Assembly (NCBI GenBank): GCA_964476605.1
Contig: CAYZBH010000003.1
Span: forward strand, 36,849 to 100,848
Source of the DNA: an uncultured Thermoanaerobaculia bacterium
GTDB taxonomy: Bacteria; Acidobacteriota; Thermoanaerobaculia; Multivoradales; JAGPDF01
DNA: 64,000 bases
Reading direction: 5' to 3'
Part shown: positions 12,496 to 25,868 of the stretch, one piece after another
Layout: each line of letters starts with the position of its first letter
How positions within the stretch are numbered: position 1 is the stretch's first letter
Made by a program: the position numbers and the translations under genes
The notes under the pieces: model-generated
The model's database searches: none
What the model saw: the letters and a program-made list of their open reading frames with translations, nothing else
What the model was told of the DNA's origin: nothing

Positions 12496-12624
12496 TTCGT
12501 GATTCGACGACGATCGGCGGGGTCCGCGTGCAGGGCGGGGCCTCCGCCTCCGTGGCACCCCACGGCAGACTTGGACCTTGAGGCTTGCGCCCCGATCCCG
12601 CGGGGCGGATCGAACGGAGGAGAC

Positions 12625-15039
<2,415 letters not shown>

Positions 15040-16022: not shown

Positions 16023-17090
16023 TCAGTCTGCTCGCTTCGACTTGGCCTTGCGAGCCGTCGCCCTCTCCTGCGGCGCCGGAAGAGCCTCCAGCGCTTTCTC
16101 CAAGGCCCGCTCGTCGGCCTCGGCTTCGGTCACGAGTCTCCGGGCGTGGAACTGGTCGTACTCGCCGAGCGCCAGACGGTCGGCGACCTCCTTCGACACC
16201 TTTCCGGGGCTCGTCAATACCTCGCGCTGATTGAATTGGAGGAAGGCGTCCAGCTTCTCGCGCCAGTCCTTCATATAGAGCAAGCGGCGCCGTCGCGCTT
16301 GGTCCTCGGCATACTCGAGATACATCGTAACGATCCGGTTGAGCACCTCGATTTCGCCTTCACCGAGGTAGTTCTTGGCGATCGTCACGTCCGACTTTCG
16401 GACCTTGGCGCCTCTCCAGTTCGTGAGCCCCATGTTCGGCTTCCGGTGGTCGGCGCGCTCGGCGATGAGTTGGGGCGCGGTCTTGCCCGCCGCCGCCCAG
16501 TGCAGCTTGTTCTGGATGATCTGGAAGAACTCGTGGGTCTCCCGGCTCTCCGGCCGGTAGTCCGCCGCGAGCGCGAAAATGTCCCGGATCTTGAGGTACA
16601 TCCTCTTCTCGCTCGATCGGATGTCTCGGATCCGCTCGAGGAGCTCGTCGAAGTAGTCGGGAGCACCGTGCCCGGGCGGGTTCTTCAGGCGCTCGTCGTC
16701 CATCGTGAAGCCCTTGACGAGGTATTCGGAGAGCCGGCTGGTCGCCCACTGGCGAAACGCCGTTCCACGCTCCGAACGCACCCGGTAGCCCACGGCAAGG
16801 ACCATGTCGAGGTTGTAGTGCTTGACCGCTCGGCGGACCTGCCGGGAGCCCTCAGGTCGAACTACTAAGTAATCCTTAATTGTTGCCTCGGCCTGCAACT
16901 CGTTCTCTTCCAGTACGTTCCGGATGTGCTGGACCACGTTTGGAACACTCGTCTGGAACAGCTCTGCAATCTGGGCCTGGGATAGCCAGAGGGATCCCAG
17001 GTCGAATCGGACTTGGATCCGCGTGCGTCCGTCCTCGGCTTGATAGAGGATCAACTCCCCGCGGGGTTCAGACGCTCGATTCATGCTCAC
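16023..17090 (-). CDS. rhuM: RhuM family (so-called virulence RhuM) DNA-binding protein, intact
   Basis: ILYQAEDGRTRIQV, WLSQAQIAELFQ, YNLDMVLAVGYRVRS..GTAFRQWAT, KGFTMDDERLK, DYFDELLERIRDIRSSEKRMY, QNKLHWA, AKNYL. GTG 17090 or ATG 17084. Visibly more AT-rich than the flanks. Confidence 0.92.
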   Translation of the reverse strand: MSMNRASEPRGELILYQAEDGRTRIQVRFDLGSLWLSQAQIAELFQTSVPNVVQHIRNVLEENELQAEATIKDYLVVRPEGSRQVRRAVKHYNLDMVLAVGYRVRSERGTAFRQWATSRLSEYLVKGFTMDDERLKNPPGHGAPDYFDELLERIRDIRSSEKRMYLKIRDIFALAADYRPESRETHEFFQIIQNKLHWAAAGKTAPQLIAERADHRKPNMGLTNWRGAKVRKSDVTIAKNYLGEGEIEVLNRIVTMYLEYAEDQARRRRLLYMKDWREKLDAFLQFNQREVLTSPGKVSKEVADRLALGEYDQFHARRLVTEAEADERALEKALEALPAPQERATARKAKSKRAD

Positions 17091-17370: not shown

Positions 17371-18792
17371 CTAGGCGGAGGCCTCCGCCCGCGCGCGGAG
17401 GGTCGCCAAGTGGGTGCTCTCGAGGGTGTCGCGGTAGAAGAGGTTGTAGGTGTCGAAGGGGATGAGGCGCCCGTCCTCGGGGTGGACGATGTGGACGCAG
17501 CTCTTCTTGACCGAGCGGACGTCGAAGGCGTGCGCGTCGATGAACTGGACGATCAGGATCCGGAAGAGGTTCGCGTAGCCGAGCTCGGCGGGCACCTGCA
17601 CGGTGGGCAGGCAGCAGAGCAGGTCCTTCAAGGTCGCCGCGCTCGACTCCGGCGAGTGGTTGGTGGCGAAGAGCTTGAAGAGCCCCTCGCGGACCGCCGG
17701 GTCGCGCTCGTAGACGATCGAGTTGCGCCCCCCCTCGATCAGCACCTGCGGGTCGATCATGCCGGTGAGCGGCACCACGCGGCCGCCGAGCTTCAGCGCG
17801 TAGGCCATCGCCAGCGAATCCGGATGGCAGGGGACGGGGATCAGGTCCTCCGGCCGGAAGCGGTCGCTCTGCTCGAGGATCCGCCGCCGTACCTCGGTCA
17901 ACGTCAGGCGGTGGCGGGCCGGGTCGTACCCCTCGACCCTGCCGGCGTCCTGCACCGGCTGGAAGGTCACGCCGCGGACGCAGCCGATCGAGAGCGCGTA
18001 CTCGACGATCGCGCCGAGCTCGTCGTCGTTCGCCCCCCGCGCGACGGTCACGACGAGGGTGGTCGAGATCCCGAGCCGGTCGAGGCGCGCGAGCGCCCGC
18101 TCGCGGATCTTCCGGAGGTCGGCACCTCGGAGCGCGAGGAGCGGCTCGCGCCGGAGCGAGTCGAATTGCAGGTAGATCTCGAAGCCCGGAGCGTACCCGG
18201 CGAGCCGTTTCGCGAACTCCTCGTCCTCCGCGATCCGCACGCCGTTGGTGTTGACCATGAGGTGGCGGATCGGCCGGCGCTTCGCGGCATCGAGGATGGC
18301 GAAGAAGTTGGGATGGATCGTCGGCTCGCCCCCCGAGATCTGGACGACGTCGGGCTCGAGCTCGTTGCGGACCACGGCGTCGAGCATGCGCTCGACCTCG
18401 GCCAGGCTCCGCATCTCCGGGCGGTGCGGTCCGCTCGCCGCGTAGCAGACCGGACAGGCGAGATTGCAGGCGTCGTTGATCTCGATCAGGGTGAGGCAGG
18501 AGTGCTGCTCGTGGTCGGGGCAGAGGCCGCAGTCGTACGGGCACCCCCAGCGGATCGGCGTGTTGTAGCGCGCCGGCATCTCGGGCGCCTTGAGGAAGAC
18601 CTCGCGCGCGCGCCGGTAGTAGTCGACGTCGTCGGCCACCAGCACGCGCTCGAAGCCGTGCTCGGGGCAGCGCTTGTCGAGGTAGACGTTCTCCTCCTCG
18701 AAGAGGATCTTCCCCTCGACCTTCCGGTGGCAGACCGAGCAGATCGAGATCGCGACGTCGTAGAAGAGGTAGGGGCGGGTGCGCGGCGCCAC
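17371..18792 (-). CDS. Radical SAM protein of the tetraether lipid synthase (Tes/GDGT-MAS, MJ0619)-like family
   Basis: N-terminal CSVC...CPEH (rubredoxin-like site), GCPYDCGLCPDH (auxiliary cluster), CNLACPVC (SAM cluster), QISGGEPT, NTNG, YLQFD, RGVTFQPV, FIDAHAFDVRSVKKSCVH, IPFDTYN. GTG start with GGAGG. Confidence 0.85.
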   Translation of the reverse strand: MAPRTRPYLFYDVAISICSVCHRKVEGKILFEEENVYLDKRCPEHGFERVLVADDVDYYRRAREVFLKAPEMPARYNTPIRWGCPYDCGLCPDHEQHSCLTLIEINDACNLACPVCYAASGPHRPEMRSLAEVERMLDAVVRNELEPDVVQISGGEPTIHPNFFAILDAAKRRPIRHLMVNTNGVRIAEDEEFAKRLAGYAPGFEIYLQFDSLRREPLLALRGADLRKIRERALARLDRLGISTTLVVTVARGANDDELGAIVEYALSIGCVRGVTFQPVQDAGRVEGYDPARHRLTLTEVRRRILEQSDRFRPEDLIPVPCHPDSLAMAYALKLGGRVVPLTGMIDPQVLIEGGRNSIVYERDPAVREGLFKLFATNHSPESSAATLKDLLCCLPTVQVPAELGYANLFRILIVQFIDAHAFDVRSVKKSCVHIVHPEDGRLIPFDTYNLFYRDTLESTHLATLRARAEASA

Positions 18793-18794
18793 GC

Positions 18795-19133
18795 TCAGCC
18801 TCCGGGGGGCGGCGGCGGGGCGCTCTCGGGCGGGCTCGCCGCCACCTGCCGGTCGGCGCGCGAGCGCGTCTTCACCAGGCCGACGATCCACCAGATGAAT
18901 CCGACCGGAAGCGCGAGCGCACCCAGGACGAAGAGCGCGCCGCAGCAGAAGCCCAGGATGTCGGCTCCGGCGCGGCTCGGACCACCGCTGAAGTCGAGAG
19001 TGAGGAGGAAGCCGAAGCAACCCGAGACGCCGAGCAGCACCCCGGCGACGGCGATCAGGCACCCTGGCGCCCAGGGCTTGTCGCGGGCGAGCGCTCGCAA
19101 CCTTCCCATCGGTTGAGACCCTCCGTCAGCCAT
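18795..19133 (-). CDS. Small Cys-containing membrane protein with a lipobox-like motif
   Basis: Two hydrophobic segments, LLGVSGC lipobox-like, GFCC in the second helix. Overlaps the lgt-like gene and ends 2 bp before the rSAM start. Confidence 0.7.
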   Translation of the reverse strand: MADGGSQPMGRLRALARDKPWAPGCLIAVAGVLLGVSGCFGFLLTLDFSGGPSRAGADILGFCCGALFVLGALALPVGFIWWIVGLVKTRSRADRQVAASPPESAPPPPPGG

Positions 19134-19887
19134 CGTTCGCCGCCGGCCCGGCGCGGCGAAGCCAGCGGACTATATCCGGGGAGAGGACGGTGAGCGCGCC
19201 CAGGCAGGTCCACTGGATCGCCGAGAGTCCCAGGCCGCGGCAGGCGGCCGGTTTCCAGAAGTCGACGAGCAGCCGGAAGGCGAAGTAGGAGGCGACGAAG
19301 CCGCGGAAGAGGTCGCCCTCTGGCGCGCCGTGCCGGCGCCAACGCGCGAGCAGAAACGCCAGAAGCGCGAGGAAAAGGATCTCGTAGAGCTGCGTCGGGT
19401 GGCGCTTCACGCCATCCCCGAAGTCGACCCCCCAGGGGAGGGTCGTCGCGACGCCGTAGGTGCGATCGGCGAGGCCGGAGAGGAAGCAGCCGATCCGCCC
19501 GATCGCGATCCCCAGGGCGAGCGGCAGCGCGAAGAGGTCCCCCGTCCGCCCGGAGATTCCGAGCAGCCTCTTCATCCCCTCGACCGCCACCCAACCGCCG
19601 GCGAGCCCCCCCACGATCGTCTTGCCCGAGAGCAGGAAGACCGGATCGGAAAGGTGCGCGAGCGTCACCGCCGGGCATTCGAGGAGCGCCAACCCCCGCG
19701 CTCCGAGCGCCGCCCCCAACGCCGCCGCCGCCACCAGCCAGAGCCGCCGCGGCGCCTCCACCCGATCCCCCAACCACCGCCGCTCCCAGAGGTAGAGCCG
19801 GAACCCCACGAAATAGGCGAGCAGCTCGAGCAACAGGTGGGGGTTAACCCGCCAAGGTCCGAACGGGAGATCGACCGGAAAGCTCAC
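19126..19887 (-). CDS. Prolipoprotein diacylglyceryl transferase (Lgt)-family paralog
   Basis: GAALGAR, GKTIVGG, GRIGCFLSG, YG..T.LPWG, RHPTQLYE, YFAFRLLVDFWK. GTG start 19887. Confidence 0.88.
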   Translation of the reverse strand: MSFPVDLPFGPWRVNPHLLLELLAYFVGFRLYLWERRWLGDRVEAPRRLWLVAAAALGAALGARGLALLECPAVTLAHLSDPVFLLSGKTIVGGLAGGWVAVEGMKRLLGISGRTGDLFALPLALGIAIGRIGCFLSGLADRTYGVATTLPWGVDFGDGVKRHPTQLYEILFLALLAFLLARWRRHGAPEGDLFRGFVASYFAFRLLVDFWKPAACRGLGLSAIQWTCLGALTVLSPDIVRWLRRAGPAANDG

Positions 19888-19918: not shown

Positions 19919-22114
19919 CTAGAAGGCCAGCACCTCGCGGGCGGCGGCGAGGAGCTTGGCCTTGTCGGGGAGGAGCGCCTGCTCGAGGGCGCGCGCGTAG
20001 GGGCTCGGGCGCTCGGGGTAGCCGACCCGCTTGACCGGGGCGTCGAGGAAGGCGAAGCCGGCGTCGGCGATCCGCGCCGCGACCTCGCCGCCGAAGCCGC
20101 CGGTCGTCTGCGCCTCGTGCACGACCACGACGCGGTTCGTCTTGCGGACGCTCGCGAGCACCGTCGCCTCGTCGAAGGGGACGAGCGTCCGGAGGTCGAC
20201 GACCTCGGCCTCGATCCCTTCGCCCGCGAGATCGGCGGCCGCTTCGAGGGCCGTCCAGACCGAGGCACCGTAGGCGACGAAGGTGAGCCGGTCCCCTTCG
20301 CGCGCCACCCGCGCCTCGCCGAGCGGAATCGTGTACTCCCCCTTCGGCAGTACCTCCTTGATGCGCCGGTAGAGGAACTTGTGCTCGCAGAAGAGCACCG
20401 GATTGGTGTCGCGGATCGCCGCCTTCAGGAGCCCCTTGGCATCGGTCGGCGTCGCCGGACAGACCACCTTGAGCCCCGCGACGTGCGCGAACCAGGCCTC
20501 CGGATTCTGCGAGTGGAACGCTCCCGCACCCACGCCGCCCCCCGAGGGGAGGCGGATCACCACCGGGCAAGGGCGCTCGAAGCGATAGAAGAGCTTGGCG
20601 ATGACGTTGACGATCTGGTTGAAGCCGCAGGCGACGAAGTCGGCGAACTGCATCTCGACCACCGGCACGTAGCCCAAGAGCGCGGCGCCGGCCGCGAGCC
20701 CGAGCGTCCCCGACTCGGAGATCGGCGTGTCGAGGACCCGGTCGGGCCAGTGGGCGTGAAATCCCTTGGTGACCCGGAAGGCGCCCTCGAAGACGCCGAT
20801 GTCCTGGCCGAGCAGCAGCACCTCGGGGTCGCGCTCCATCTCCTCGCGGAGCGCCTGGTGGATGGCGTCGAGGTAGGTGACCTCGCCGTGCCCCTTCGGC
20901 GCTGTCGCGGCGCCGGTGAAGGCGGCCATTGGCGCCAACGCCGCCGGTTCGTCGACGTCCTCCATCGCTTGGAGTGCACGGCCGCTGACGAGGACGGTGG
21001 CGTCTTCTTCCGGATCGATCTCCCCCACCGGCGGCGGCGGCTGCGCGACCAGGATCGGCATCACCCGCTGCTCCGGCCGCGCGAAGACCGGCCGGAAGGC
21101 GGTCTTCTCCTCGGGCGGCGGCGCCGCGAGCGCCGCCTCGATCGCCTGCTCCACCAGCTCGGAGACCCGTCGCTCGAGCCGCTCCTGGGTCTCGGGGTCG
21201 AGCACGCCGTCGAGCGCGAGCTTCCGAGCGTAGGAGGGGACCGCGTCCTGGCTCCGGTAGAGCTCGAGCTCCTCCGCGGGGACCACCTTCATCGAGCCGT
21301 CCCCTTCGGCATGGCCGCGCAGCCGCCCGACCACCGCTTCGAGCAGCGTCGGTCCGGCCCCGGCGCGCGCGCGGGCGAGAGCGCGGGCGAGCGCCTCGGC
21401 CATCGCATCCGGATCGTTGCCATCGACGGTGAGCGCCGGGATGCCGTAGCCGGGACCCCGGTCGGAGAGCTGCAGGCAGGCGAACTGGTGACGCGCCGGG
21501 GTCGAGAAGGCGTAGCGGTTGTTCTCGACCACCAGCACGAGCGGCAGCTTCCAGACCGCGGCCAGGTTCAGCCCCTCGTGGAAATCCCCCGTGGAGGTCC
21601 CCCCCTCGCCGATGAAGTTGATCGCCACGCGGTCGCCGCCGTTCTTCTTGAGCGCGAAGGCGCAACCGGCGGCGACCGGGATCATGGCGCCGAGATGGCT
21701 GATCATCCCGACGTGCGAGAGGCCGGCGTTCTCGTCGAAGTAGCCGTAGTGGTACGAGCGCTCGATGCCGCGCGAGAAACCGTCCTGGCGCCCGAGCACC
21801 TGGCAGGCGAGCCGGTAAAAGAGCCGCTCGGGGTCGGGGCGCCGCCCGTCGGAGGCGCCGAAGCCGAAGCCGGGGAAGGCGCGCGCCGGATCGAGGTAGT
21901 AGGCGAGGATCGCCCCGACGTCGCGATGGAGGGAGCAGAGAACGTCCCCCTCCTCGAGCGCCAGGCCCGCCGGAACCGTGATCCCCTCGTTGCCGATCGC
22001 GGAGTACCACTTCGCGATGCGGCCGGTGAGCAGCATCGCCTCGAAGCGCGAATCGAAATCCCGCGCGAGCTTCATGAAGGCATAGCGGAGCAGCCGCTCC
22101 TTCGGGGTCGCCAC
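19919..22114 (-). CDS. Fused 2-oxoacid dehydrogenase E1 alpha/beta (branched-chain/pyruvate dehydrogenase family)
   Basis: ThDP motif GEGGTSTGDFHEGLN...VVENN, RLRGHAEGD. Beta part GQDIG, DTPISE, EMQFADF, FHSQ, VVHEA. Confidence 0.93.
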   Translation of the reverse strand: MATPKERLLRYAFMKLARDFDSRFEAMLLTGRIAKWYSAIGNEGITVPAGLALEEGDVLCSLHRDVGAILAYYLDPARAFPGFGFGASDGRRPDPERLFYRLACQVLGRQDGFSRGIERSYHYGYFDENAGLSHVGMISHLGAMIPVAAGCAFALKKNGGDRVAINFIGEGGTSTGDFHEGLNLAAVWKLPLVLVVENNRYAFSTPARHQFACLQLSDRGPGYGIPALTVDGNDPDAMAEALARALARARAGAGPTLLEAVVGRLRGHAEGDGSMKVVPAEELELYRSQDAVPSYARKLALDGVLDPETQERLERRVSELVEQAIEAALAAPPPEEKTAFRPVFARPEQRVMPILVAQPPPPVGEIDPEEDATVLVSGRALQAMEDVDEPAALAPMAAFTGAATAPKGHGEVTYLDAIHQALREEMERDPEVLLLGQDIGVFEGAFRVTKGFHAHWPDRVLDTPISESGTLGLAAGAALLGYVPVVEMQFADFVACGFNQIVNVIAKLFYRFERPCPVVIRLPSGGGVGAGAFHSQNPEAWFAHVAGLKVVCPATPTDAKGLLKAAIRDTNPVLFCEHKFLYRRIKEVLPKGEYTIPLGEARVAREGDRLTFVAYGASVWTALEAAADLAGEGIEAEVVDLRTLVPFDEATVLASVRKTNRVVVVHEAQTTGGFGGEVAARIADAGFAFLDAPVKRVGYPERPSPYARALEQALLPDKAKLLAAAREVLAF

Positions 22115-22126
22115 GATCGCGGGAGT

Positions 22127-23629
22127 CTACGGTGGCGTCGACGAGGGCGGCAAGGAAGGGGCTCGCCCGCGCCAGATGTCCACCTTCCTCCCCCGCTTGA
22201 CGAGCTCGAGCTCGGGCAGGCCGAGCTCCTCGAGCACCGAGCCGAGCCAGGGGTCGTCCCGCACCACCGCGATGCGCGCGGTGCCCCAGTCGTCCCGCCA
22301 CCAGAGCTCGCGGGCGGAGATCGCGCGGTCGGCGATCGGCCAGATGACGTGCTCGGAGCCCGCCCGATAGAGGAGCGAGTTGGCGCGAAAGACGATCGGA
22401 TAGACCTGCCAGTAATCCCCGGCGAGATGCGTCGCGTGGCGGCGGATGAGCTCTTTCGCGATTCCATCGAGGGGTCGGTCGAGCTGGGAAGAGAACCGTA
22501 GTGCTTGCTTTGCCCGAGCGAGGGACGGCAGTGCGAATTCCATCGTGAGCACCAGGCAGAGGACGACCAGCGCGCCCGCGGTGACGAGCCCCTCGGCGCG
22601 ACGGGACGGCGAGGCCCAGAGCCCTGCCGCGGCGACGACCGGCGCGACGGCGACGAGCGCGAAGGAGATCGTCGCGTAGCGCCATCCCTGGAATCCGATG
22701 CCGGCGTTCTGCCGCACCCAATCGAAAGCGCCGACGAGCAGGAAGGAGAGCGCGGCCGCACCGACGAGCCGCGTCGCGAGCCGTCGCGCACGCTCGACGG
22801 GTGACGCCGCCCGGCGCGTCGCTCCCAGCAGGGCCCACGCGCCCACGCCGGCGGCCACGATCACCAGGTACGCGAACGGCAACGCGTCCGCCGCCTGCGC
22901 GAGGAGCGTGTTCCAGGTCCCGGGCCAATCCCCGAGCGGGCTCCAGCCGCCGGGCGTGTGCCGCACCCGCGGCACCGCGCGGCCGGCCCAGGCGACGGCG
23001 GCCGCGAGCGCCGTGAGACCCGCGATGCGACCGATCAGGGGTCGCCCGAACGATCCCCGCCGTTCGGCGACGGCGACCGCGAGCGGCGCCAGCCAGAAGA
23101 GCGTGGTCGGCGTGATCCAGAGCGCGGCCGCGACGAGCACCCATCCCAGGCGACGGCTCGCGGGCCGTGAGGCGTCCAGGCAGACGAGCGCCGCGAGCGC
23201 GGGTGCCGCTGATTGGGTGTAGGCCTGCTGGCAGGCGCAGAAGAAGACGTGGAACGGGCCGAAGAACACGACCGCCGCGGTCGCGCTCAGAACGCCCGCG
23301 GCGAGGCTCCCTCGCGCGCCCAGCAGCAGACGCGCCAGCAGGAGCCAGGTGGCCAGGAAGAGCGCGTAGTCGACGGTCGACTGCGCGAGCAGGTTGTGCA
23401 CCGGGTTGCGGAAGGGCAGGGCGAGGAGCGCCACCGCCTGCCCGAACCGGTCCTCGCCCCAAATGAAGGGGGTCCAGCGATAGAGGCTCCCGAAGACCGG
23501 GAGCAGCGAATCGGAGTTGGCCTGCGAGAGATTCCGCCCGAGCGTCATCCAGACGCCGCCGCCGAGCGCGGCGGCGCAGGCGGTGAACCGCTCGCCGACG
23601 GACCAGCGCTCGCTCGCCGGTACGGACAC
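22127..23629 (-). CDS. Polytopic membrane protein, possible GT-C fold glycosyltransferase
   Basis: About 10 TM. First-loop acidic motif NSDSLLP..SLYRWTPFIWGEDRFG, C-terminal soluble part with AGDYW. Confidence 0.55.
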   Translation of the reverse strand: MSVPASERWSVGERFTACAAALGGGVWMTLGRNLSQANSDSLLPVFGSLYRWTPFIWGEDRFGQAVALLALPFRNPVHNLLAQSTVDYALFLATWLLLARLLLGARGSLAAGVLSATAAVVFFGPFHVFFCACQQAYTQSAAPALAALVCLDASRPASRRLGWVLVAAALWITPTTLFWLAPLAVAVAERRGSFGRPLIGRIAGLTALAAAVAWAGRAVPRVRHTPGGWSPLGDWPGTWNTLLAQAADALPFAYLVIVAAGVGAWALLGATRRAASPVERARRLATRLVGAAALSFLLVGAFDWVRQNAGIGFQGWRYATISFALVAVAPVVAAAGLWASPSRRAEGLVTAGALVVLCLVLTMEFALPSLARAKQALRFSSQLDRPLDGIAKELIRRHATHLAGDYWQVYPIVFRANSLLYRAGSEHVIWPIADRAISARELWWRDDWGTARIAVVRDDPWLGSVLEELGLPELELVKRGRKVDIWRGRAPSLPPSSTPP

Positions 23630-23648: not shown

Positions 23649-25868
23649 TCAGCGCGGAAGAGCCGAGACCTTGGTCTCGAATTCGTTGCGGCGAGGGTGC
23701 TCGGGCTCCATCTGGAGGAGGATCCGGAGCGCGAGCTCCGCCTCGGCGCGCTTGCCGGCGGCGACGAAGCTCTCGAGTTGCCGCACCCCCTGGTCGATCC
23801 CTTGCTGGCGCCGGTGAACCTCCTCGTAGCGGCTCACCTCGTTGAAGAGCTGCGCGGTGCGTGGATACTCGGGCACCACGCGCTCGAGCTCGAGCACGAT
23901 CTCGCGGGCGCCGAGCCAGTCCTTCGCTTGCACCTTCTCCCGGAACCGGCGCTCGAACTCCTGGCTCTTCGCCTCGCGCGCGGCGAGGGCGGCGATGTCC
24001 GAGATGCGGAGGCGATAGCTCTCGACCGAGACCTTGGCGAGCCCTCCGGCCGAGAGGCGCTCGAGCTCGCGCTCCGCTTCGTTCAGACGGCGGCCCTCGA
24101 GGAGCTCTTCGAGCCGCTGGCGCTGCCGGCCGATCTGCTCGTCCGACGCGAGCTGCTTCTCGGCGAGGGCGATCTCCCCCTCCAGGGTCTCGGCCAAGCG
24201 GTGCGAGGGATCGATCTTGGCGACCGCCTCGACCTGCTTCTTCGCCGACTTGAGATCGCCGCGCCGGATCGCCTGTCGCCCCTCCTCGAAGGCTGCACGC
24301 GCGCGCGCGAGCTCCCGCGCCTCTTCGCCCAGGAGGGCGACCCAACTCGCGTAGTCCGCGCGCCGCGGATGGAGCGGCGCCAGCTCGAGCAACGTGTCGA
24401 GGGCGAACTGCGCGAGCGACTGCTTGTGCTCCCTGAGGTAGGTCTCGAGGAGCCGCTCCGCCTCGGCGACTTTGGCGGCGAGCTCCTCCTCCTCGGCGCT
24501 GGGCGGGGCGGGAGCGGCCGGCGCGGGCGTGACGGGCGCGGGCGCGACCGGCGGCGGGGCGGAAGCGGCGGCGGGCTTGGCCGCCTCCGGCATCGCGGCG
24601 ACGACGGCGGCGCGCGGTACCGGCTGCGTGGCGGCGCTGGGCTTCGCGGCCTTGCGCGCCACCGCCTGCGACTGGAGCGCACGCCCCACCGCGGCGAGCT
24701 GCTCCTTCAAGGGCGCGATACCCGGATGGCGCGGCGAGAGCGATTCGAGCTGGGTCACCAAGCCGGCGGCGTCGTCGTAACGCTTGGCGGCCACCGCCGC
24801 CTCCGCCAGCTCGTGCAGGCGGGAGCTCTCGCTCACCTTCTTGGCCGCCCGCTCGATCTGTGCCAGCAGCTCCATGCGCTCCTCGCGCGAGAGCTCCGAA
24901 GAGGAGCCCGCGCGGCTCACCGGACGCGGCGAGGAGGTCGCGACCGCTGGCGTCACCGCGCCGGTCGGGAGCGACACTTCCTGGGTCGCCACCTGGCGCA
25001 GCTTCTCCGCCACCTTGACCAGGGCCTGCAGGAAGCTGATGGCGTCGGGGTGCCGCGCCTCGCGGTCCTTCTCGAGCCCTTTCAGGACGACCGCGTCGAG
25101 CTCGGCCGGGACCGTCACCTGGGGGTTCCGCCCGATCATCGGCAGCGGCGGCTCGGTCAGGCGCTTGAAGACGTAGCCGTGCTGGTTCTCGGACTCGAAG
25201 GGGGGGCGCCCGGTCACCATCTCGTAGAGCACCGCGGCGAGCGAGTAGAGATCACTCCGGTGATCGAGCGGCTCGTCCTTGAGCGCTCCGGCCTGCTCCG
25301 GGGAGCAGTACATGAGCTTACCCATGAACATCCCGGCCTGGGTGATCTCGAGCCCCTGCTGCACTTCGAGGTTCTTGGCGAGCCCCAGGTCGATGATCTT
25401 GAGCTGATAGCGCCCGCGGCGGTCGCGGGTGATCATCAGGTTGTCGGGGGAGACGTCGCGGTGGATGACGCCGGCGGCGTGGATCGCCTCGAGGCCGCGG
25501 AGCGCCTGGATCGCGAGCTCCACCGCGAGCGGCATCGGAAAAACCCCCTTCTGCTTCAGCCAGGTGCCGACGTCCTCCCCTTCGATGTGCTCGGAGACCA
25601 TGTAGAAGCTGCCGTCGGCCAAGCGCGAGAAGTCGTAGAGGATGGCGACGTTGGGGTGCTTGATCTGGGTCGCGATCCGCGCCTCCTGCGCGAAGCGCTG
25701 GAGCGCCATCGGATCGGTCGCCCGGTCGGCGCGCAGGATCTTGATGACCCGGAGCTCGTGGAGGTGGAGGTGCTTCGCCTTCCAGACCTCCCCCATCCCG
25801 CCCGTCGCCAACCGGTCGACGATCTCGTACTTGCCGTCGAGAATGGTCCCGCTACTGCGCTCGGTCAC
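23649..25868 (-). CDS. Hanks-type Ser/Thr protein kinase with Pro/Ala linker and helical (TPR-like) C-terminus
   Basis: LATGGMGEVW, VIK, HRDVSPDN, IDLGLAK, YCSPEQ, DLYSL. No TM helix evident. Confidence 0.93.
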   Translation of the reverse strand: MTERSSGTILDGKYEIVDRLATGGMGEVWKAKHLHLHELRVIKILRADRATDPMALQRFAQEARIATQIKHPNVAILYDFSRLADGSFYMVSEHIEGEDVGTWLKQKGVFPMPLAVELAIQALRGLEAIHAAGVIHRDVSPDNLMITRDRRGRYQLKIIDLGLAKNLEVQQGLEITQAGMFMGKLMYCSPEQAGALKDEPLDHRSDLYSLAAVLYEMVTGRPPFESENQHGYVFKRLTEPPLPMIGRNPQVTVPAELDAVVLKGLEKDREARHPDAISFLQALVKVAEKLRQVATQEVSLPTGAVTPAVATSSPRPVSRAGSSSELSREERMELLAQIERAAKKVSESSRLHELAEAAVAAKRYDDAAGLVTQLESLSPRHPGIAPLKEQLAAVGRALQSQAVARKAAKPSAATQPVPRAAVVAAMPEAAKPAAASAPPPVAPAPVTPAPAAPAPPSAEEEELAAKVAEAERLLETYLREHKQSLAQFALDTLLELAPLHPRRADYASWVALLGEEARELARARAAFEEGRQAIRRGDLKSAKKQVEAVAKIDPSHRLAETLEGEIALAEKQLASDEQIGRQRQRLEELLEGRRLNEAERELERLSAGGLAKVSVESYRLRISDIAALAAREAKSQEFERRFREKVQAKDWLGAREIVLELERVVPEYPRTAQLFNEVSRYEEVHRRQQGIDQGVRQLESFVAAGKRAEAELALRILLQMEPEHPRRNEFETKVSALPR

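Follow-up and report, generated by a model that had tools for sequence, protein, structure and literature searches.

A conserved cassette encoding an Lgt paralog, small cysteine-bearing membrane proteins and a Tes-related radical-SAM enzyme in Acidobacteriota and other bacteria

Bacterial homologs of the archaeal radical S-adenosylmethionine (radical-SAM) enzyme GDGT-MAS (MJ0619), or Tes, are uncharacterized candidates for the synthesis of brGDGTs (branched glycerol dialkyl glycerol tetraethers) (Zeng et al., 2022; 2026 review). In genomes and metagenomes they have been read as markers of brGDGTs or membrane-spanning lipids (PMC8941075; PMC11868695). Another radical-SAM enzyme, Mss of Thermotoga and Thermoanaerobacter, has been proposed to couple lipid tails (PMC13159169). 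Here we analyzed a three-gene cassette located in a stretch of 64,000 nucleotides from an uncultured Thermoanaerobaculia bacterium of the Acidobacteriota (contig CAYZBH010000003.1, positions 36,849 to 100,848; this whole stretch is referred to as the window). The cassette encodes a paralog of the diacylglyceryl transferase Lgt, a small membrane protein and a Tes-related radical-SAM enzyme.

Several features of GDGT-MAS are relevant for the comparison. The enzyme contains a rubredoxin-like iron site (C9X2C12...C33X2H36), N-terminal auxiliary cluster ligands (C73, C77, C80 and a His) and a further cluster, [Fe4S4]C, which is the site of a C-S intermediate (PMC9433317). Met439 and Tyr459 were completely conserved among 1000 archaeal homologs, and M439 and Y459 variants were still active (Lloyd et al.; PMC9433317).

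The sequence comparisons presented here point firmly to a dedicated, self-contained module, in which a membrane transferase and a cytoplasmic radical-SAM enzyme are combined with one to four hypervariable small membrane or prolipoprotein-like proteins sharing nothing but a single Cys where a hydrophobic helix ends. The parts belong to known families; in the literature searched, no description was found of their combination, of the remodelled active sites or of the dedicated putative acceptor proteins. Full-text literature searches retrieved no paper linking Tes homologs with a diacylglyceryl transferase. This is in agreement with the original prediction made from the letters of this DNA, which knew of no characterization of the trio.

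Co-conservation and taxonomic range

A total of 160 related loci were collected, 80 of which were seeded with the radical-SAM enzyme (one genome per species) and 80 with the Lgt paralog (metagenome contigs). An Lgt-like gene was located directly upstream of the radical-SAM gene, on the same strand, in 66 of the 80 radical-SAM-seeded loci. Most of the others had no upstream sequence and about six were true exceptions, including L079, where the Lgt-like gene is located downstream. With the Lgt paralog as seed, the radical-SAM gene was found downstream on the same strand in 57 of the 80 loci and 16 had no room for it; among the remaining seven, only L137 had more than 1.5 kb of downstream sequence without a radical-SAM gene. 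All-against-all clustering of the neighbouring open reading frames (ORFs) revealed no other neighbour conserved beyond close relatives, including ferredoxin, methyltransferase and acyltransferase genes. This arrangement is far beyond chance. The original expectation that the trio is co-conserved across phyla was borne out by the seeding from both sides, the counts of small proteins and the sister clade, the latter two being described below.

A natural fusion of both enzymes was detected in a search of the representative library. The fusion protein (P0124, 733 aa) combines LGT, Zn_ribbon_HMPTM and Radical_SAM domains, with the two enzymes joined by a Pro/Ala-rich stretch of about 45 residues. 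Three members (with P0271 and P0272) on three metagenome contigs made up its cluster, indicating that the fusion is real, and the fusion in turn indicates that the Lgt paralog and the radical-SAM enzyme work together. The C-terminus of E. coli Lgt is cytoplasmic; by homology, the fusion would therefore place the radical-SAM enzyme at the cytoplasmic face, tied to the membrane enzyme.

It could be argued that ordinary housekeeping genes have come to lie side by side by chance, namely a normal lgt, a pterin-methylating radical-SAM gene and a small ORF unrelated to them, since some databases name the homologs '7,8-dihydro-6-hydroxymethylpterin dimethyltransferase' in line with an old annotation of MJ0619. 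However, this annotation was overturned by the structure and assays of GDGT-MAS (PMC9433317), on which ground the pterin-methylase reading of the radical-SAM enzyme was rejected, and the host bacteria are not methanogens. The Lgt-like protein scored far under the equivalog cut-offs and carries Cys in place of N146 of E. coli Lgt. Because of the two-way co-conservation across phyla and the Lgt-radical-SAM fusion, the chance-neighbour reading was rejected as having a negligible probability.

The radical-SAM-seeded loci belonged mostly to Acidobacteriota. The other loci were labelled as Elusimicrobiota, Eisenbacteria, Rhodanobacteraceae and other Proteobacteria, Myxococcota, Planctomycetota, Chloroflexota, Longimicrobium, Paenibacillus and Brevibacillus, and Oleiagrimonas also carried the cassette. 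In the loci compared, the radical-SAM enzymes were 63-85% identical across phyla. The Lgt paralogs showed mostly 43-67% identity, with a few more divergent, and the small proteins could be aligned by profile only. The pace of change is thus very uneven among the genes of a single cassette, with an extreme constraint on the radical-SAM enzyme. The closest named homologs of the radical-SAM enzyme came from metagenome-assembled genomes (MAGs) of Thermoanaerobaculia (Acidobacteriota, 85% identity), and more than 8000 relatives with at least 73% identity were present among the matches listed. The Tes homolog of Edaphobacter aggregans cited by Zeng et al. (2022) and the 2026 review showed 32% identity (E 4e-61), a divergence as expected for the cassette clade, of which it is a candidate member only. 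A record named 'uncultured Halobacteriales archaeon' (L023) contained a complete bacterial-type cassette with a radical-SAM enzyme 72% identical to that of the window, and is probably a mis-binned contig.

A sister clade, whose nearest full-length representative (P0133) was 44% identical to the window enzyme, occurred in Campylobacterota, Sulfuricurvum among them, and in Candidatus Gracilibacteria. The order LGT, small ORF(s), radical-SAM was displayed in all three contexts examined, and the small genes resembled those of classical prolipoproteins. The small gene of Sulfuricurvum encodes a 36-aa protein, MKKGFWILLLMGVVGFASMG-C-VIRMGNVPSQHSENF (the Cys being followed by VIRMG...), and that of locus L164 encodes a 218-aa protein, MTKKSKTIIVSIAVILGLLFGITTG-C-THS... 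Both resemble classical lipoprotein signal peptides ending in G-C, with the -3 and -2 residues off the strict consensus. The small protein of Gracilibacteria has 102 aa and contains ...VIGAGIT-C-GG. The Lgt paralogs of Sulfuricurvum and L164 retained GRIGC, and the radical-SAM enzyme of L164, the only one translated from this clade, retained the PCxP and CC motifs described below. The presence of the cassette in the small genomes of Gracilibacteria, which belong to the candidate phyla radiation, together with the identity of the radical-SAM enzyme across phyla, suggests that its function matters to the cell.

The clade around representative P0137 (including Nitrososphaerota and Chloroflexi), which had the highest Tes score among the ten representatives scanned singly, was used as a control. 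No LGT gene was found in any of its four contexts; the Lgt partnership is thus confined to a single clade of the superfamily. A SAM-dependent methyltransferase gene was located immediately downstream of the radical-SAM gene in three of these contexts (L165, L167 and L168; CMAS-like in L168), and PlsY (G3P_acyltransf) was encoded nearby in two of the three. The context of the P0137 clade may represent a separate lipid-tail-modifying module.

The radical-SAM enzyme and the Lgt paralog

The radical-SAM enzyme matched Pfam Zn_ribbon_HMPTM (57.4 bits, cut-off 27) and Radical_SAM and no other Pfam domain. The motifs CSVC...CPEH, CPYDCGLC and CNLACPVC, which had been pointed out in the original prediction, were all present. 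An alignment of 46 sequences identified as invariant the rubredoxin-like Zn-ribbon (C18, C21, C42 and H45), the N-terminal auxiliary cluster motif CPYDCGLCPDHEQH (C84, C88 and C91, plus H94/H97) and the radical-SAM (RS) motif CNLACPVC (C109, C113 and C116). The latter two aligned to the GDGT-MAS structure 7TOL. The divergent C-terminal domain displayed invariant C322, C393-C394 ('LLCCLP') and C432. C322 (PVPCHPD) is common to many superfamily members, and the CC motif was also detected in the fusion protein P0124 and the sister clade. In divergent superfamily members the CC motif was checked by eye, as the MAFFT superfamily alignment misaligned it.

The best solved relative of the radical-SAM enzyme was GDGT-MAS (PDB 7TOL; E 6.4e-66, about 27% identity). 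An AlphaFold2 model had a pLDDT of 70.4, with a core above 90 and the segments 346-399 and 420-430 below 50. A Foldseek search with this model matched 7TOM/7TOL with TM-scores of 0.71-0.73 (E 2e-31, about 495 columns), the C-terminal part being of low confidence, and the next match reached a TM-score of 0.38. The Tes profile NF045702 gave 255.9 bits (cut-off 450) and was covered at positions 3-312 of 486 only, which correspond to the N-terminal two thirds. The profile of TrsS (NF045646) gave 295 bits (cut-off 490), with residues 15-452 of the enzyme matching positions 4-432 of 441. Thus, the proposed membership in the Tes/GDGT-MAS family is in accordance with sequence and fold at the level of the superfamily, but does not extend to the Tes equivalog, since both the score and the C-terminal site differ.

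In the 7TOL alignment, which was anchored by F-x-D-A-x-x-F-D and I-P-F-x-T-Y-N (chain index = residue number + 20), the C-terminal residues C438, M439, H440, C455, Y459 and C470 of GDGT-MAS corresponded to I414, V415, Q416, S431, I435 and D447 of the radical-SAM enzyme, respectively. C456 was the only C-terminal cluster Cys that was kept (as C432). Among the 46 sequences, I414, I435 and Q416 were at least 90% conserved and D447 was invariant, while V415 and S431 were not conserved positions. The strict Met439/Tyr459 site of GDGT-MAS was therefore absent from the radical-SAM enzyme. Because GDGT-MAS variants at both of these residues are active, the lost Cys ligands represent the more telling change. 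The differing C-terminal cluster ligands and the family-specific CC motif both argue that the enzyme is not a Tes equivalog.

The Lgt paralog matched Pfam LGT (PF01790) with 78.7 bits (cut-off 24.9) and remained far under the NCBIfam equivalog cut-offs for Lgt (TIGR00544 and NF000778; 48.1 vs 334 and 36 vs 118.9). E. coli Lgt (5AZB) was its sole PDB match. The motifs of the family were GKTxVG, TGD, GRxGC (containing the invariant Cys134), GDGxxRHPxQxYE and YxxxRxxxxFxKP. Residues were tabulated in E. coli Lgt numbering from an alignment of 61 sequences, which were collected via the radical-SAM enzyme and are therefore unbiased by any Lgt motif. The E. coli reference sequence agreed with the 5AZB alignment over residues 61-267.

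R143, H196, Y235 and R239 of E. coli Lgt were invariant in the paralog and D129 was nearly invariant. Y26 was replaced by His in 89% of the sequences, H103 by Val in 92% and N146 by Cys in 100%; position 243 (Glu in E. coli Lgt) was mostly Asp and position 246 (Arg) was Lys. Y26, H103, R143, N146, Y235 and R239 are catalytic or essential residues of Lgt, and this canonical set is only partly retained in the paralog. The retained R143 and R239 are the phosphate-binding pair of Lgt.

Small membrane proteins and the proposed lipid anchor

The small protein of the window consists of a basic N-terminus (RLRALARDK...), a first hydrophobic helix ending in VSG-C-FGF, a short loop, a second hydrophobic helix and a basic tail. 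No match was found in Pfam, NCBIfam or PADLOC. Its sequence LLGVSGC matches the lipobox pattern [LVI][ASTVI][GAS]C. A Cys pair in helix 2 (GFCCG, 18930-18950, residues ~62-64) was not kept in the homolog of locus L001. A tblastn search with this protein identified homologs in L001, L002 and L013 only, suggesting that the small protein was not conserved, and this was overturned by clustering the gap ORFs and building hidden Markov models (HMMs).

Three types of Cys-bearing membrane proteins were distinguished. The gap ORFs between the Lgt-like and radical-SAM genes formed one family (type A) with two helices, the first of which ends in [AGS]-x-G-[L/S]-C-[G/F]-G, and the window protein belongs to this type (HMM match E 9e-19). 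In the loci scanned, type A genes occurred nowhere but in this gap, never on the opposite strand and frequently as 2-4 tandem copies. Type B (three helices, about 100-140 aa) was encoded directly downstream of the radical-SAM gene in Paenibacillus, Brevibacillus, Planctomycetota and Bryobacterales and ends in G-I-T-F-L-L-N-A-A-C-F-G. Type C proteins had 277-326 aa and seven predicted transmembrane helices, with L-L-x-S-L-C-A-G in the first. The Cys was kept in 67 of 70 type A, 29 of 29 type B and 16 of 18 type C members, whereas the remaining sequence was hypervariable; the lipobox-like Cys that the original prediction had noticed in a single protein is thus a conserved feature. The positive-inside rule predicts this Cys to be at the outer face of the membrane.

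The frequency of such proteins was estimated with a strict rule (a length of 40-230 aa, two or more helices and a Cys that follows 12 uncharged hydrophobic residues and one small residue), which by itself was positive in 73 of the 95 complete loci. The same rule applied as a control to 1.17 Mb of the same loci gave 6 candidates, corresponding to 0.009 expected per target zone. When HMM matches and the strict rule were combined, at least one Cys membrane protein was found beside the pair in at least 84 of the 95 complete loci, and 32 of the 84 had 2-4 copies. Loci L015, L041, L097 and L099 were apparent negatives, yet on inspection a Cys membrane protein was present. In the Myxococcota MAG locus L079 (8001-12512) the order was inverted, the radical-SAM gene being followed by a more canonical-looking Lgt-like gene (29% identity to that of the window) and then by three tandem paralogs, each with a signal peptide and 'HGSGAVNLDGLNPLLAAGCAH', which holds a canonical LAAGC lipobox about 40 residues in.

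We tentatively favour a pathway that is dedicated to S-lipidation and linked to radical chemistry on the lipid, which might yield a small protein with a non-standard lipid anchor; judged from sequence, this is plausible but somewhat short of an even chance. Hypervariable proteins conserving a single Cys display the pattern of substrates or carriers and not that of enzymes. Their Cys is predicted on the side of the membrane where the active site of Lgt is located, that is, at the outer face. A dedicated Lgt is most easily explained by a non-standard lipid or acceptor.

The donor, acceptor, order of steps, chemistry and biological role that we infer would be as follows. By homology to Lgt, the paralog would be an integral membrane transferase with its active site facing the outer side of the cytoplasmic membrane, and would use a phospholipid as the donor of a glycerolipid moiety, which it would attach to the one conserved, helix-embedded Cys of the small proteins encoded next to it. 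The radical-SAM enzyme would work from the cytoplasm, where it would dock to the C-terminal end of the paralog (some organisms encode the two as a fusion), and its 5'-deoxyadenosyl radical may functionalize an acyl or alkyl chain of that lipid at its end. This step could precede or follow the transfer. The chemistry might resemble that of GDGT-MAS, with a C-C bond formed inside one lipid or joining separate lipids, or might create a C-S bond via the family-specific CC motif. The product would be a small protein with a macrocyclic, dimeric or otherwise remodelled lipid anchor.

A more specific version, which we regard as possible but rather unlikely, is that the small proteins receive a glycerolipid anchor whose tails are joined C-C (or C-S) by the radical-SAM enzyme, giving a macrocyclic or membrane-spanning anchor. 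In a stronger form of this version, the small proteins would serve as carriers during the assembly of bacterial membrane-spanning lipids. If true, this would explain the resistance of such lipids to solvent extraction in Acidobacteria.

Several observations weigh against S-lipidation with radical lipid chemistry. The Lgt paralog might not catalyze an Lgt-type transfer at all, because Y26, H103 and N146, which matter for catalysis in Lgt, are lost. The Gracilibacteria paralog (L163:2538-3281, genetic code 25) displays GRLGA, the Cys that is otherwise invariant being replaced by Ala. The site of the C-S intermediate of GDGT-MAS is not conserved in the radical-SAM enzyme, so that C-C coupling is not assured. 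A further difficulty is how one lipid could be shared between an Lgt-type active site and a conserved Cys at the outer face and a radical-SAM enzyme that is necessarily cytoplasmic. About 7-11 of the 95 complete loci had no adjacent Cys protein. The lipobox-like context was non-canonical in most members (G-[L/S]-C in type A, N-A-A-C in type B and S-L-C in type C), and that of type B is located near the C-terminus.

The homology of the radical-SAM enzyme to GDGT-MAS along its full length, the high frequency of the cassette in Acidobacteriota and the fusion, which shows joint action of both enzymes, would also fit a lipid synthase that works independently of proteins. The pair would then be the synthase of membrane-spanning lipids (iso-diabolic acid or brGDGT precursors) that is missing in Acidobacteria and other bacteria. 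In this case the Lgt paralog would serve to bind a phospholipid, to present it or to re-attach head groups, with the small proteins acting as accessory subunits or as regulators. However, such a synthase gives no reason for hypervariable tandem small proteins conserving one Cys, and the C-terminal cluster ligands of GDGT-MAS are replaced. The cassette also occurs in Paenibacillus, Brevibacillus, Oleiagrimonas, Sulfuricurvum and Gracilibacteria, none of which, to our knowledge, makes such lipids. In Acidobacteria no Mss homolog was detected and the membrane-spanning-lipid synthase is unknown, which agrees with a missing synthase, but Tes homologs were reported in only three of 14 iso-diabolic-acid-producing acidobacteria (PMC13159169). 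The iso-diabolic acid of Acidobacteria is freed only when the biomass or the extraction residue is hydrolysed (PMC13274423), again in accordance with this explanation. On balance, we consider a protein-independent synthase unlikely. The link to acidobacterial membrane-spanning lipids drawn in the original prediction keeps some plausibility in view of the lack of Mss and the release by hydrolysis only, but it was weakened by the spread of the cassette to the five groups named above and by the small share of producers with Tes homologs.

Another explanation is that the radical-SAM enzyme acts on the small proteins directly, for example by cross-linking them at the conserved Cys through a thioether or in some other way, in a maturation resembling that of ribosomally synthesized and post-translationally modified peptides (RiPPs). 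The Lgt paralog would then be a membrane scaffold or would add a lipid independently. The small genes are tandem and hypervariable with one conserved residue, like those of precursor peptides, and the invariant CC motif in the C-terminal domain of the radical-SAM enzyme could be redox-active. The second-tier structural matches were the RiPP maturases SkfB and SuiB, but these matched through the radical-SAM core, and maturase-family matches covered this core only (residues ~95-300), with no SPASM, twitch or RRE domain detected in the enzyme. The sole full-length structural relative was the lipid enzyme GDGT-MAS (TM-score 0.72 vs 0.38), and the Cys is predicted at the outer face, beyond the reach of a cytoplasmic enzyme. 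Such a maturation thus appears quite improbable.

If the small proteins are lipidated as we propose, the cassette has consequences for the interpretation of Tes homologs. The cassette clade of 'Tes homologs' differs in its C-terminal site and is tightly coupled to an Lgt paralog and to putative Cys-bearing acceptor proteins; its product may thus be a lipoprotein rather than a free tetraether, and in that case gene surveys based on Tes homologs would have to be read differently. A substrate-dedicated second Lgt-type enzyme with an active-site Cys would constitute a new branch of lipoprotein biogenesis. The radical-SAM clade also provides a naturally occurring variant of the GDGT-MAS scaffold, with a CC motif instead of the cluster that holds the C-S intermediate. 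The system is tractable, as it comprises three genes only and culturable carriers such as Paenibacillus sp., Oleiagrimonas soli and Paracidobacterium acidisoli exist.

Locus layout and comparison with described systems

Reading the sequence confirmed the three adjacent ORFs on the minus strand (Table 1) in a window with a G+C content of about 70%. The 8-bp overlap and 2-bp gap between the genes, as originally described, apply to the maximal ORFs. For the small protein, the ATG at 19109 is more likely to be the start than that at 19133, because it is preceded by a Shine-Dalgarno sequence and corresponds to the Met at which the closest homolog, that of L001, starts. With this start the overlap with the Lgt-like gene would be replaced by a 16-nt spacer after its stop codon.

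Table 1. Coordinates of the cassette and of further features in the window.
Feature	Position	Strand	Description
Lgt paralog	19126..19887	-	GTG start 19887, TGA stop 19126; 253 aa; polytopic membrane protein
Small membrane protein	18795..19133	-	Maximal ORF ATG 19133 to TGA 18795, 112 aa; probable start ATG 19109, 104 aa
Radical-SAM enzyme	17371..18792	-	GTG start 18792; 473 aa
Shine-Dalgarno GGAGGG	19119..19124	-	9 nt 5' of ATG 19109 of the small ORF; read from sequence
Shine-Dalgarno GGAGG	18799..18803	-	6 nt 5' of the GTG of the radical-SAM gene; read from sequence
Fused 2-oxoacid dehydrogenase E1 alpha/beta	19919-22114	-	731-aa ORF; E1_dh (alpha), Transket_pyr and Transketolase_C (beta)
RhuM-family gene	16023-17090	-	Pfam 377 bits; PADLOC candidate defence family PDC-S05, 508 bits
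Polytopic membrane protein	22127-23629	-	500 aa; no Pfam, NCBIfam or PADLOC match
Ser/Thr kinase	23649-25868	-	Long TPR-like C-terminal part; adjoins the 500-aa membrane protein
Membrane-bound H+-translocating pyrophosphatase	12499-15039	+	Pfam H_PPase, 608 bits

The cassette is flanked upstream by the pyruvate-dehydrogenase-type E1 alpha/beta fusion gene, which ends 32 nt before the Lgt-like start, and downstream, at a distance of 280 bp, by the RhuM-family gene. Neither of them recurred beside the cassette when neighbours were clustered in the 80 genome loci. The kinase gene was also present a few kb upstream of the cassette in the close relatives L001 and L002. PADLOC gave no match for the Lgt-like protein, and only a weak core similarity to pVip (43 bits) for the radical-SAM enzyme. 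No canonical lgt was found within the 64-kb window, which says nothing on the rest of the genome.

Among the described systems, GDGT-MAS/Tes (MJ0619; 7TOL/7TOM; NF045702) shares with the radical-SAM enzyme the CX2C...CX2H ribbon, the CX3CX2C + His auxiliary motif, the CX3CX2C RS motif and, according to the model, the same four-domain overall fold. However, the C-terminal cluster region of the cassette enzyme is remodelled, with C322 and C393-C394 as new invariant residues, and the enzyme is paired with an Lgt paralog, while the Tes-like control clade has no such partner. The best-scoring curated family was TrsS, a radical SAM (seleno)protein, which was also the only one matching the enzyme along its full length including the C-terminal domain; nevertheless, the enzyme remained below its cut-off, as did all ten representatives scanned singly. 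Mss belongs to a different radical-SAM lineage according to its authors, who found no Tes homologs in those organisms (PMC13159169), and it is set apart here by this description.

The presumed acceptors resemble the substrates of Lgt in carrying a Cys after a hydrophobic helix. Unlike the canonical lipobox of bacterial lipoprotein precursors, the residue before the Cys is Leu or Ser in most of them. Leu or Ser at this position may block cleavage by signal peptidase II.

Lgt itself shares with the paralog the Pfam LGT fold and R143, R239, H196, Y235 and D129. The paralog differs by an invariant Cys at N146, His at Y26 and Val at H103, and by its NCBIfam scores it is not an equivalog. It is also shorter, and in the alignments to E. 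coli Lgt/5AZB the greater part of the long periplasmic insertion is missing. Finally, Lgt is a general enzyme, whereas the paralog is genetically dedicated to 1-4 neighbouring small proteins.

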